A stretch of DNA of 25,141 bases from a virus (taxonomy: Duplodnaviria > Heunggongvirae > Uroviricota > Caudoviricetes): the IMG/VR virus record IMGVR_UViG_2541047778_000011, one strand, 5' to 3'. The notes beneath the pieces are model-generated. The model was not told the origin of the DNA, did no database searches, and worked only from the letters and a program-made list of their open reading frames with translations. Shown here piece by piece: positions 1-2,439 of this stretch. Every line of letters starts with the position of its first letter. The first letter of the stretch is position 1. The translations under genes were made by a program, and so were the position numbers.

Positions 1-718
1 CTATGCTGTTTTGATATCTACGATAATCCAGTCTTTACCACGATCATCATTGTATCGGTCGGTCATTTTTCTGGATTTATGGCCTAACAACTTTTGCGTA
101 TCCAGACCCTGTTCCCGATATAACCGTTCTGACAGAGATCGCTGCTCATGAAATGTGGGCGCAGTTCCTTGCTCCCATTTTATGCCACATTTTTCCCGGG
201 CCTTTTTAAAAGCCGTTGTCAGAGTATTCGCAGAAACCTGGTCTCCTCTGTTTGCTTGAGAGGTAGTGTGACGGTAATGGACCAGATATTTACTAACAAC
301 AGCATCCCTGCACTGAGATATAACTTCACGAAGGGTAATATTCAGAGCATCGCATTTCAGGTTAAGCGGAATAGCAAGTTTTGAACCGGTTTTTTCCTGA
401 GTAATGTGCAACATGTCGTCCCATATATCAGAGAATTTCAAATTGCAGATATCGCCTAAACGTTGTCCAGTAACAAGAGCAAGTAGCATGCCGCATTTTA
501 AATAGGGCTGCCGTCTGCTTACGCTGTCAAATATTGCCTGCCATTCGGGCAGTGACAATCTTTGGCGGTTTACTCGATTTCGCGGTTGTTTTGTTGCCTG
601 CGCTGGGTTAAATCCTGGCGGAACATGTCCTGCGTGTTGTGCTTCTTTGAAGACGTCGATCAACACCATTCTCACGACTTGCGCCATCCTGTTATGACCT
701 TCAGCCTTTACAGCATCA
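1..718 (-). pseudogene. int: Phage tyrosine integrase, 5'-truncated: C-terminal catalytic portion only (~239 codons), reading frame open up to the IS boundary
   Basis: Minus-strand ORF 1..687 aligns by eye to the lambda Int catalytic domain (LALVTGQRLGD..., ...PTFHEQRSLSERLY..., LLGHKSRKMTDRYNDDRG). The frame stays open upstream to position 718, where the IS begins. About 120 N-terminal residues are missing. Stop codon at 1..3. Confidence 0.85.
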
Positions 719-772
719 TGAACCGCCCCGGGAATCCTGGAGACTAAACTTCCTGAGAAAGAGGTAAACAGG

Positions 773-1099
773 ATGACTAAAAATACTCGTTTTTCCCCCG
801 AAGTCCGTCAACGGGCAGTCCGTATGGTTCTGGAAAGTCAGAGCGAATATGACTCACAATGGGCGACAATTTGTTCCATTGCTCCAAAGATTGGCTGTAC
901 GCCGGAGACTCTGCGTGTCTGGGTTCGCCAGCATGAGCGGGATACCGGGGGCGGTGATGGAGGGCTCACCACCGCTGAACGTCAGCGTCTGAAAGAGCTG
1001 GAACGTGAAAATCGTGAACTGCGCCGCAGTAACGATATCCTTCGCCAGGCTTCCGCTTATTTTGCGAAGGCGGAGTTCGACCGCCTCTGGAAAAAATGA
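773..1099 (+). CDS. IS3-family transposase OrfA (HTH / leucine-zipper part)
   Basis: 108-aa [25 protein letters not shown]... typical of IS3-family OrfA (recalled as IS629/IS1203-like). It ends in an A6 run that overlaps the orfB start. Confidence 0.9.
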
Positions 1100-1986
1100 T
1101 GCCACTGCTGGATAAGCTGCGTGAGCAGTACGGGGTCGGACCGCTATGCAGCGAACTGCATATTGCCCCGTCAACGTATTACCACTGTCAGCAACAGCGA
1201 CATCATCCGGATAAACGCAGTGCCCGTGCGCAGCGCGATGACTGGCTGAAGAAAGAGATACAGCGCGTATACGATGAAAATCACAAGGTATACGGTGTGC
1301 GTAAAGTCTGGCGTCAGTTGTTACGGGAAGGTATCAGAGTGGCCAGATGCACTGTGGCACGTCTCATGGCGGTTATGGGACTTGCCGGTGTTCTCCGGGG
1401 TAAAAAGGTCCGTACGACCATCAGCCGGAAAGCCGTTGCCGCAGGCGACCGCGTAAACCGTCAGTTCGTGGCAGAACGACCTGACCAGCTGTGGGTGGCT
1501 GATTTTACTTACGTCAGCACATGGCGGGGCTTCGTCTATGTGGCGTTCATCATTGATGTGTTTGCCGGATACATCGTGGGGTGGCGGGTCTCATCGTCCA
1601 TGGAAACGACATTCGTGCTGGATGCACTGGAGCAGGCGTTATGGGCCCGTCGACCGTCCGGCACGGTCCATCACAGTGATAAAGGTTCTCAGTATGTATC
1701 GCTGGCCTACACACAGCGGCTTAAGGAAGCCGGATTACTGGCATCAACAGGAAGTACAGGCGACTCGTATGACAACGCGATGGCGGAGAGCATCAATGGT
1801 CTTTACAAAGCGGAGGTAATACACCGTAAGAGCTGGAAAAACCGTGCAGAAGTGGAACTGGCCACACTCACGTGGGTGGACTGGTATAACAATCGACGAT
1901 TGCTGGAAAGGCTGGGCCATACTCCTCCGGCAGAAGCAGAAAAAGCTTATTATGCTTCCATCGGAAACGATGATCTGGCAGCCTGA
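1096..1986 (+). CDS. IS3-family transposase OrfB (DDE catalytic core), probably made as an OrfAB fusion by -1 frameshift at the A6 run 1091..1096
   Basis: 296-aa ORF in the -1 frame relative to orfA, with a DD(35)E-type integrase core (...[24 protein letters not shown]..., ...HSDKGSQY..., ...[16 protein letters not shown]...). Confidence 0.9.
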
Positions 1987-2028
1987 GTTCACAGATAAAA
2001 CACTCTCCAGGAAACCCGGGGCGGTTCA

Positions 2029-2439
2029 CCGGCACATCAGCAAAACGCTATTCACGCAGTACAGCAAATCCTTCCAGACCCAACCAAACCAATCGTAGTA
2101 ACCATTCAGGAACGCAACCGCAGCTTAGACCAAAACAGGAAGCTATGGGCCTGCTTAGGTGACGTCTCTCGTCAGGTTGAATGGCATGGTCGCTGGCTGG
2201 ATGCAGAAAGCTGGAAGTGTGTGTTTACCGCAGCATTAAAGCAGCAGGATGTTGTTCCTAACCTTGCCGGGAATGGCTTTGTGGTAATAGGCCAGTCAAC
2301 CAGCAGGATGCGTGTAAGCGAATTTGCGGAGCTATTAGAGCTTATACAGGCATTCGGTACAGAGCGTGGCGTTAAGTGGTCAGACGAAGCGCGACTGGCT
2401 CTCGAATGGAAAGCGCGATGGGGAGATCGGGCTGCATGA
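2029..2439 (+). pseudogene. ninB: NinB (Orf-family recombination mediator), 5'-truncated by the IS629 junction; first ~10 codons missing
   Basis: Frame-1 translation directly after the IS right end reads PAHQQNAIHAVQQILPDPTKPIVVTIQERNRSLDQNRKLWACLGDV...[11 protein letters not shown], matching lambda NinB from about residue 11. There is no start codon at the junction. Confidence 0.8.

Follow-up and report, generated by a model that had tools for sequence, protein, structure and literature searches.

An IS629 element at the junction of a probable stepwise deletion of the early region in an icd-integrated lambdoid prophage of Escherichia coli

How a lambdoid prophage of Escherichia coli lost its entire early region, and what part the insertion sequence (IS) at the deletion junction played in that loss, was investigated in a 25,141-nucleotide stretch of viral DNA (IMG/VR record IMGVR_UViG_2541047778_000011), referred to below as the window. 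An earlier note, made from the sequence alone, had described the junction as the site of an IS-mediated adjacent deletion or of recombination between two IS copies, which left behind a locked-in defective prophage. The features of the window were listed in Table 1.

The integration site of the prophage was the 3' end of icd; 113 bp separated icd from the int stop codon (positions 1-3), and a fragment of icd was duplicated at the far end. The attL and attR sites, 37.2 kb apart, were marked by 215-nt icd repeats with 96% identity. The gene order was nin, Q, lysis, terminase, head and tail, as in lambda, and the prophage belonged to the icd-integrated lambdoid prophages of the phage 21 type. The icd island (about 37 kb) carried iss and an OmpC-like porin gene, with sitABCD beyond the window. 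The Q, lysis, packaging and virion genes had been called intact; their reading frames were all open in the window, which is as far as intactness could be shown, and the side tail-fibre gene just past the window was a pseudogene in the closest genomes. The tail assembly gene I was interrupted by the end of the window.

Table 1. Positions of the IS, its flanking gene remnants and the retained prophage genes in the window.
Feature	Position	Strand	Basis
Phage-21-type tyrosine integrase gene (int), 3' remnant, codons 143-380 of 380	1..718	-	Alignment to intact 1143-nt CFT073 int
Left flanking triplet, TCA	716..718		Differs from right triplet CCG
IS629 (IS3 family), complete, 1310 bp	719..2028	+	Near-identity to annotated IS629
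IRL (left terminal inverted repeat)	719..743	+	23/25 match to reverse complement of 2004-2028
IS629 orfA, 108 aa, helix-turn-helix	773..1099	+	PF01527, E=7e-13; NF033516 profile positions 1-86
Programmed -1 frameshift region: A6 run at 1091-1096 and ALIL pseudoknot	1054..1170	+	Rfam RF01497
IS629 orfB, 296 aa, DDE/rve catalytic domain	1096..1986	+	PF00665, E=8e-28; NF033516 (NCBIfam IS3 transposase), 314.6 bits
IRR (right terminal inverted repeat)	2004..2028	+	Pairs with IRL, 23/25
ninB remnant, codons 11-146 of 146, starting with CCG (Pro11)	2029..2439	+	Alignment to intact APEC E12053 ninB
nin region: adenine methyltransferase, ninE, ninX, DUF1364 remnant, rusA, ylcG, Q	2436..4655	+	Transferred from PGAP annotation of SCU-116; frames open
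Q antiterminator (quuD type)	4272-4655	+	Transferred from PGAP annotation of SCU-116
Lysis cassette: holin (essD type), lysozyme (rrrD type), spanin (rzpD type)	6515..7685	+	SCU-116 annotation; frames open
Packaging, head and tail: terminase small subunit to tail protein K	9769..25141	+	SCU-116 annotation; all frames open

The element at the junction, previously called IS629-like, could be named IS629. Positions 719-2028 were 99.5% identical over the full 1310 bp to the mobile element annotated as "IS3 family IS629" in phage Stx2_499 (LC567824), and copies 99.3% identical to the window IS were named "IS3-like element IS629 family transposase" by PGAP. The window IS was 100% identical to both copies of the CFT073 icd prophage, and no mismatch separated it from the copies of CFT073, FY26, EC21GDE043 and MS20673. 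The length, the imperfect terminal inverted repeats, which start TGAACCGCCCCGGG, and the orfA and orfB frameshift layout agreed with this assignment. The only hit in an Rfam scan of the window was the ALIL pseudoknot (RF01497), which scored 120.2 bits where the gathering score is 50; a programmed frameshift was likewise flagged by PGAP in the SCU-116 annotation of the IS. The one property of a simple IS629 insertion that was lacking was the target-site duplication (TSD) of 3-4 bp. The missing TSD is the mark of a rearranged copy and no argument against the identity of the element. A tRNA scan of the window found zero tRNAs. A hybrid outward promoter at the IRR/ninB junction and terminators in the DNA from the IS to Q were also sought; sites in the consensus scan were no commoner than in shuffled sequence, and none lay at the junction.

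The IS was flanked by the remnants of two genes. On the left it met the middle of int on the minus strand, as the earlier note had placed it; the loss amounted to 142 N-terminal codons, however, not about 120, and 238 codons were retained. In the 238-aa product, Pfam PF00589 spanned residues 58-225; the catalytic domain was the sole domain covered, and the arm-binding and core-binding N-terminal part was missing. The statement that the prophage has no integrase was correct as to function, but the coding sequence of the catalytic domain persists. On the right, ninB was entered at codon 11, exactly where it had been estimated, and the remnant covered positions 11-131 of the 131-position Pfam NinB profile; the first canonical in-frame start in the ORF list was a GTG at 2221. 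In SCU-116, PGAP annotated int and ninB as partial pseudogenes without N-termini (int as "incomplete, missing N-terminus"), and this same truncated ninB was annotated in three different ways in RefSeq. For annotation, both genes are best handled here as pseudogenes.

The flanking triplets, TCA on the left and CCG on the right, did not form a TSD, while simple insertions of the same IS elsewhere carried ATC and GGT (CFT073), TAA (DETEC-S586), TAT (EC38) and CCAG. Microhomology at the deletion endpoints was at most 1 nt; replication slippage and end joining were considered and found unsupported, because the endpoints share so little.

Comparative analysis of related prophages confirmed the gene losses that had been expected (xis, recombination genes, N, cI/cro, cII and replication genes). 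Relatives carried xis, exo/bet/gam, kil, cIII, ral, sieB, N, cI, cro, cII, O, P and ren between the two flanks, and codons 1-10 of ninB and the N-terminal part of int also fell inside the lost interval. Alignment of the flanks, with CFT073 and FY26 as references, set the deleted interval at CFT073 1398088-1417191 (19,104 bp); this interval includes two IS629 copies and one ISEc10, and about 14 kb of it is phage DNA. In the closest genomes, the rest of the DNA from attL to attR contained no annotated int, xis, repressor or replication gene. An intact IS lay between flanks that are non-adjacent in the same prophage and keep their original orientation, and the DNA between them was absent relative to CFT073, FY26 and E12053; the site is a deletion junction.

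The identical int-IS629-ninB junction was present in 3 of 5,426 complete genomes (SCU-116, AH19K002 and Eco_23-2678). Its recurrence, without change, in three independently completed genomes shows that the junction is no artefact of assembly. The window represents a fourth, distinct genome, which differed from each of the three by 24-28 substitutions elsewhere. Neither of the two hypothetical junctions expected of a precursor or a reciprocal product (ninB codons 1-11 followed by IRL, and IRR followed by int sequence upstream of nt 716) gave a single-piece match in the 5,426 complete E. coli genomes. Nearby, unrelated insertions were all that the search for these junctions returned. In papers on genomic islands of extraintestinal pathogenic E. 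coli, the int-IS629-ninB junction was not described.

Sister strains carried a series of variants of this junction. Only 10 of the 5,426 genomes had this IS at a distance of up to about 850 bp downstream from the initial 300 nt of the int remnant. The left end lay at int nt 733 in FY26, APEC E12053, BEN5202 and NCTC11151, at nt 718 in the window, SCU-116, AH19K002 and Eco_23-2678, at nt 496 in EC21GDE043 and at nt 452 in MS20673; DETEC-S586, the tenth genome, had a simple insertion at int nt 971 (TSD TAA). The right end lay upstream of sieB in FY26, at an identical base of O in E12053 and EC21GDE043, at ninB codon 11 in the window and 11 bp deeper in ninB in MS20673. The int-733 end was paired with four different right flanks, and the O junction was found with left ends 733 and 496. 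One IS junction was thus held in common while the other end differed, which is the nested, one-sided pattern of IS-mediated deletion. The int remnant showed 0 mismatches to the series strains and 10 mismatches in 718 nt to CFT073; with their identical int remnant, the series strains form a common lineage.

Two copies of the element were also found side by side in this group. FY26 had two direct, identical IS629 copies, at int-733 and in O. CFT073 had two direct, identical copies as simple insertions, one in xis (TSD ATC) and one 39 bp upstream of ninB (TSD GGT), and NCTC11151 had a full IS adjoining a second copy without its first 152 nt. The IS in O of FY26 and the O junction of E12053 were 2 bp apart and did not form a TSD pair; the idea that they are the two sides of one simple insertion was rejected, since two bases of O (AG) are absent between them. 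In the ECOR strain EC38, int nt 452 had been struck independently, in the opposite orientation. Reuse of targets by IS629 could mean that shared or neighbouring junctions are sometimes independent insertions rather than inherited ones.

The reading that best accounts for these data is that the early region was removed by IS629-driven deletion, with a stepwise, one-sided history as the likeliest course (probability about 0.85). IS-driven deletion is supported because the sister series shares single ends and because FY26 and CFT073 keep two direct copies. The ancestor of the lineage would have carried an IS629 copy at the int/xis end of the prophage. Later events would have pushed one IS end at a time deeper into the flanking DNA while the IS was kept intact, and the state of the window, int nt 718 joined to ninB codon 11, probably arose from an int-733 left end with more early DNA on the right. 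We infer this order rather than observe it, because the direct intermediates (int nt 733 joined to ninB codon 11, or int nt 718 joined to O) occurred in no genome of the 5,426-genome collection.

Each step may have been a transposition-type strand transfer within one molecule, in which an IS end was joined to nearby DNA. Equally possibly, a second copy moved a short distance and RecA then recombined the two direct copies. Indirect support for a possible dependence on transposase or on RecA recombination between IS copies comes from the relatives with two copies. Copy-out-paste-in transposition of IS3-family elements by itself deletes no donor DNA (bioRxiv 10.1101/2023.06.07.543989), and a one-step route would therefore require an extra, undefined resolution step. 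PMC9943667, citing Kusumoto 2011, documents IS629-associated deletions next to the element that span a few nucleotides to over 40 kb. The reading in the earlier note was borne out in every element that could be examined, and both mechanisms put forward there, adjacent deletion and IS-by-IS recombination, had direct precedents in the sister strains.

A single homologous recombination event between two direct IS629 copies, one inserted at int nt 716-718 and the other at ninB codon 11, would leave one hybrid IS that is indistinguishable from the observed structure. Identical direct copies do exist in relatives, in xis and upstream of ninB in CFT073 and in int and O in FY26, and IS629-type elements recurrently strike int and the ren/ninB region of lambdoid prophages. 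However, neither precursor junction of such an event occurred among the 5,426 complete genomes. The left end of the window was only 15 bp from the int-733 end of strains with the identical int allele, and the right end of MS20673 was only 11 bp from that of the window. Because the steps are only 11-15 bp, repeated IS-anchored events fit better than unrelated insertions, and the single-step history, while possible, is judged somewhat unlikely.

Deletion promoted by the excision enhancer IEE, as in O157:H7, would join transposase breaks by microhomology-mediated end joining. IEE-dependent deletions beside IS629 are documented in PMC9943667 with sizes between a few nucleotides and over 40 kb, and the steps of 11-15 bp lie within this range. 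To assess the presence of iee, 1.2 kb of the Sakai gene was added to the query, and the extra matching places per genome were counted. Strains positive for iee did match the appended query, but no added match was found in SCU-116, AH19K002, Eco_23-2678, E12053, EC21GDE043, MS20673 or CFT073, at megablast sensitivity and in present-day genomes; IEE is reportedly rare in B2/D extraintestinal strains (PMC9943667). The junctions showed microhomology of at most 1 nt, and the IS ends were perfectly preserved. IEE-promoted deletion is therefore disfavoured and very improbable. Because the lineage lacks iee, the IS629 deletion events here do not need IEE, and the IS-driven deletion was apparently independent of it.

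A still smaller chance is given to the view that nothing was deleted, and that the early region was moved by inversion or translocation between IS629 copies or was lost by assembly collapse over the repeated IS. About 10-14 places per host genome matched the IS-containing query and offer substrates for rearrangement and mis-assembly. However, the junction was the same in three independently assembled genomes and in the window, 24-28 SNPs apart. No reciprocal junction was found in SCU-116, AH19K002 or Eco_23-2678, the flanks keep their original relative orientation, and graded deletions occur at the same locus in sister strains. Least probable of all is an ordinary transposition of IS629 into a pre-existing, IS-independent junction of illegitimate recombination, since, although IS-free loss of early regions is known in lambdoid prophages (the exoD/peaD/renD junctions of K-12 DLP12 lie away from an IS end), an ordinary insertion should have left a 3-4 bp TSD like those at other simple insertions, and the highest-ranking matches of the searches included no IS-free junction of int nt 718 and ninB codon 11.

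Comparison with known systems placed the prophage among familiar relatives. It shares the 3' end of icd as its site, and the duplicated icd fragment at attR, with the icd-integrating group of phage 21, e14 and NC-SV, which includes the icd island of CFT073. Its int is of the phage 21 type; GenBank AF017626 is this int with the same IS inserted. The lambda-like gene order of NC-SV described in PMC12803456 matched that of the window prophage; NC-SV was described as intact, whereas the window prophage is without the entire early region and has iss, the OmpC-like porin gene and, outside the window, sitABCD. DLP12 of E. coli K-12 has the same rusA-ylcG-quuD-porin-essD-rrrD-rzpD-bor/iss module; its immunity and replication genes are likewise lost, and an IS3-family element lies at the ren/nin border. 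In DLP12, however, intD is full-length, the IS3 element is a simple insertion within renD rather than a deletion junction, and most virion genes are lost, while the virion genes of the window are all still open reading frames. The prophages of O157:H7 carry the same element (isoform group IS629/IS1203) in the same lambdoid setting and with IS-adjacent deletions. The lineage of the window differs in being non-Shiga-toxin, related to extraintestinal strains (CFT073 and avian O2:K1 isolates) and without iee; many O157 events are attributed to IEE, whereas this lineage keeps the IS with intact ends at each step.

The deletion history proposed here would have left a prophage unable to excise itself, replicate, keep immunity or be induced, with the Q, lysis, head and tail frames still open. 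The prophage is defective, having no functional int/xis, repressor/operators or O/P/ori, and from its gene content it is predicted to be non-excising and non-inducible. The description "locked-in" applies to self-excision alone; RecA recombination between the 215-nt icd repeats, or a phage-21-type Int/Xis supplied in trans, could still remove the prophage.

The junction is a routine case of known, well-understood prophage decay and involves no new principle. The variants may nevertheless record, as a natural allelic series, repeated advances of both ends of a resident IS629 into flanking DNA, by 11 bp to several kb, with the IS intact and in IEE-less strains; that the steps were truly one-ended and transposase-driven is a tentative and distinctly doubtful proposal. 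If true, the series would be field evidence for IEE-independent deletion by "sloppy strand transfer" of a copy-out-paste-in IS, a pathway that current models do not fully account for. The loss of excision, replication and induction functions explains the chromosomal fixation of the icd island that bears iss, the porin gene and sitABCD, and the variants, set side by side, show neatly in natural strains how a prophage is first grounded and then worn away by an insertion sequence.

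The insertion sequence in the window was complete, with terminal inverted repeats that started TGAACCGCCCCGGG and matched between the two ends at 23 of 25 positions. It shared 99.5% full-length identity with a mobile element of the Stx2_499 phage annotated as 'IS3 family IS629', and was 100% identical to the copies in CFT073, FY26, EC21GDE043, and MS20673. It can thus be assigned to IS629, an already known element, as the earlier note had proposed. The flanking triplets differed (TCA and CCG), so that the element had no target-site duplication (TSD), as had also been noted; simple insertions of the same IS did carry TSDs of 3-4 bp (ATC and GGT in CFT073, TAA in DETEC-S586, TAT in ECOR strain EC38, and CCAG in Stx2_499).

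Features of the window around IS629 and in the retained prophage genes
Feature	Position	Strand	Remarks
Tyrosine integrase gene, 3' part	1-718	minus	stop codon 1-3
IS629, complete	719-2028		1310 bp
orfA	773-1099		helix-turn-helix, PF01527
ALIL frameshift pseudoknot	1054-1170		Rfam RF01497, 120 bits
A6 slippery run	1091-1096		within the ALIL match
orfB	1096-1986		DDE/rve; NCBIfam IS3 transposase, 314 bits
ninB remnant	2029-2439		runs to stop codon
DUF1364 gene remnant	3601-3690		90 nt; N-terminus missing; upstream of rusA
OmpC-like porin gene	4844-5926	minus	360 aa by PGAP start; between Q antiterminator and holin genes
Chromosomal iss	7717-8010	minus	directly 3' of lysis cassette
Terminase-portal-protease genes	11392-15626		

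Alignment to the intact int of CFT073 (1143 nt, 380 codons) showed that the int remnant retained codons 143-380, with the PF00589 catalytic domain as the sole domain left; the N-terminal truncation described earlier was borne out, with 142 codons gone instead of about 120. The ninB remnant began with CCG (Pro11), in agreement with the expected codon 11, and covered positions 11-131 of the 131 in the Pfam NinB profile. Its earliest canonical in-frame start was GTG at 2221, and a scan of the IS/ninB junction gave no promoter-like site above background. RefSeq treated the near-identical truncated ninB (window 2029-2439; 4370-4759 in L015, a relative sharing the window junction; 4704-5162 in L007, MS20673) in three ways: as a pseudogene in SCU-116, as a protein of 129 aa with an ATT start (window 2050) in AH19K002 and Eco_23-2678, and as a 152-aa protein with its start codon inside IS629 in MS20673.

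Of 5,426 complete genomes, three that had been assembled independently carried the identical junction, namely SCU-116 (human, USA), AH19K002 (human blood, Australia), and Eco_23-2678 (monkey, St Kitts), and an artefact was therefore rejected. The window differed from each by 24-28 substitutions and so represented a fourth genome; the deleted prophage is a stable inherited state of a lineage. In every comparison the terminase-portal-protease genes held most of the substitutions, with one difference at most in the first 6 kb. This looks like a patch that was acquired from another prophage by recombination, not clock-like divergence.

In E. coli chromosomes matching the window, 113 bp separated the end of icd from the int stop codon. 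The two prophage ends in SCU-116 were marked by a 215-nt repeat with 96% identity between its copies: attL lay within icd, and attR 37.2 kb away, at an icd fragment that had been displaced. Phage 21, e14, and the intact lambdoid prophage NC-SV (PMC12803456) share this attachment site. From attL to attR the order was int remnant, IS629, ninB remnant, nin genes, rusA, Q (quuD type), OmpC-like porin gene, holin, lysozyme, spanin, iss, terminase, head, tail, and sitABCD, the last beyond the window yet inside the same interval. No xis, recombination, N, repressor, cro, cII, O, P, or ren gene was annotated from attL to attR, and CFT073 and FY26 carried the missing early genes exactly between the two breakpoints of the window, which agreed with the reported loss of xis, recombination, N, repressor/cro, cII, and replication genes. 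The missing interval in CFT073 (1398088-1417191, 19,104 bp) included two IS629 copies and one ISEc10, leaving about 14 kb of phage DNA. The Q, lysis, packaging, and virion genes were retained as open reading frames, being among the annotated frames that run from the methyltransferase gene up to tail gene K, of which 31 of 31 were open in the window.

The porin gene was prophage cargo at the place of nmpC in DLP12, intact in contrast to the IS5-disrupted nmpC of K-12. The iss gene (increased serum survival) was a bor homologue. The DUF1364 remnant was common to all relatives examined, including CFT073, and is thus the trace of an earlier deletion in the nin region that involved no IS.

When a chimeric query was used, this IS was located no more than about 850 bp downstream of the initial 300 nt of the int remnant in only 10 of the 5,426 genomes. 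Simple insertions were found in DETEC-S586 (int nt 971) and CFT073, which had one copy in xis (TSD ATC) and, 39 bp upstream of ninB, an identical copy in direct orientation (TSD GGT). In the other strains IS629 lay between the following left and right flanks, the left given as the distance in nt from the int stop codon. The left end int-733 was joined to a site upstream of sieB in FY26 (with a second copy joining O-552, in replication gene O, to ninX), to O-555 in APEC E12053, to other IS debris in BEN5202, and to a second IS629 without its first 152 nt in NCTC11151. EC21GDE043 had int-496 and O-555, the window and its three matches int-718 and ninB codon 11, and MS20673 int-452 and a ninB site 11 bp deeper in the gene. 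Compared with the int-733, int-496, and int-452 strains, the window had no mismatches in the int remnant, which places them in one prophage lineage; compared with CFT073 it had 10 mismatches in 718 nt. In NCTC11151 (L009 4734-7200), where the full IS629 abutted the shortened copy, the adjoining lysis-iss module was inverted; this is an IS-driven rearrangement of greater complexity in the same prophage. The CFT073 prophage was also decaying by independent routes: its LexA-family repressor gene was broken into a partial pseudogene and a small, separate HTH ORF (L012 3428-4129), and ISEc10 interrupted an ead/Ea22-like gene.

Thus four right flanks were combined with int-733, and two left flanks with O-555. 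One fixed and one changing IS end is the signature of repeated one-sided IS-anchored events, and two-copy configurations able to recombine persist in FY26 and CFT073. Both mechanisms put forward in the earlier note, IS-mediated adjacent deletion and recombination between IS copies in place of a simple insertion, therefore have direct precedents in relatives. A stepwise history of the window state, starting from the int-733 state, is favoured, because unrelated insertions hardly account for sister junctions that are offset by only 15 bp and 11 bp. A single recombination between two simple IS629 insertions could still have produced the junction. Two caveats apply. IS629 reuses sites: the MS20673 junction at int nt 452 (window 450-452; L007 3453) coincided with an independent simple insertion of opposite orientation (TSD TAT) in EC38 (GenBank AF017626; L013 623-1932), which suggests an insertion hot spot, and the FY26 and E12053 junctions in O were 2 bp apart and not a TSD pair. 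Like the single recombination, inversion or translocation of the early region, instead of deletion, was argued against by the lack of precursor or reciprocal junctions in the complete-genome collection (5,426 E. coli genomes). IS629/IS1203-type elements were also found in or adjoining ren and ninB of many unrelated lambdoid prophages (O145:H28, O103:H2, SCU-306, 24AR0357, and others), and the border between these two genes appears to be targeted recurrently.

In O157:H7, deletions adjoining IS629 have been linked to the IS-excision enhancer, IEE (PMC9943667; bioRxiv 10.1101/2023.06.07.543989). When 1.2 kb of Sakai iee (ECs_1305) was appended to the junction query, as many places matched as before in SCU-116 (12), AH19K002 (11), Eco_23-2678 (14), E12053 (27), EC21GDE043 (20), MS20673 (14), and CFT073 (9), while iee-positive strains did match the fragment; these seven genomes were thus without iee at megablast sensitivity. 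This agrees with the reported rarity of IEE in B2/D extraintestinal strains (PMC9943667). Microhomology at the deletion junctions was at most 1 nt, and the deletions were most likely IEE-independent. Among the best 10 iee matches, all had an IS629/IS1203 copy within about 2.3 kb of iee, whose product PGAP now names 'TOTE conflict system archaeo-eukaryotic primase domain-containing protein'.

Judged from its genes, the prophage lacks the arm- and core-binding part of Int, Xis, the repressor, its operators, N, and O/P with the origin, and so would not drive its own excision, replication, or induction. The term 'locked-in' holds in this sense; excision could still occur by outside routes, through a phage-21-type Int/Xis in trans or RecA recombination between the 215-nt icd repeats. 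Overall, the earlier observation was confirmed, and apart from minor corrections its interpretation was supported. The prophage type is known from phage 21, NC-SV, and the icd island of CFT073. DLP12 of K-12 shares the rusA-quuD-porin-lysis-bor module, is likewise without immunity and replication genes, and has IS3 in its renD. That IS elements ground lambdoid prophages is textbook knowledge, and the feature is ordinary, mildly unusual only in its well-preserved bidirectional junction series in an iee-negative lineage.
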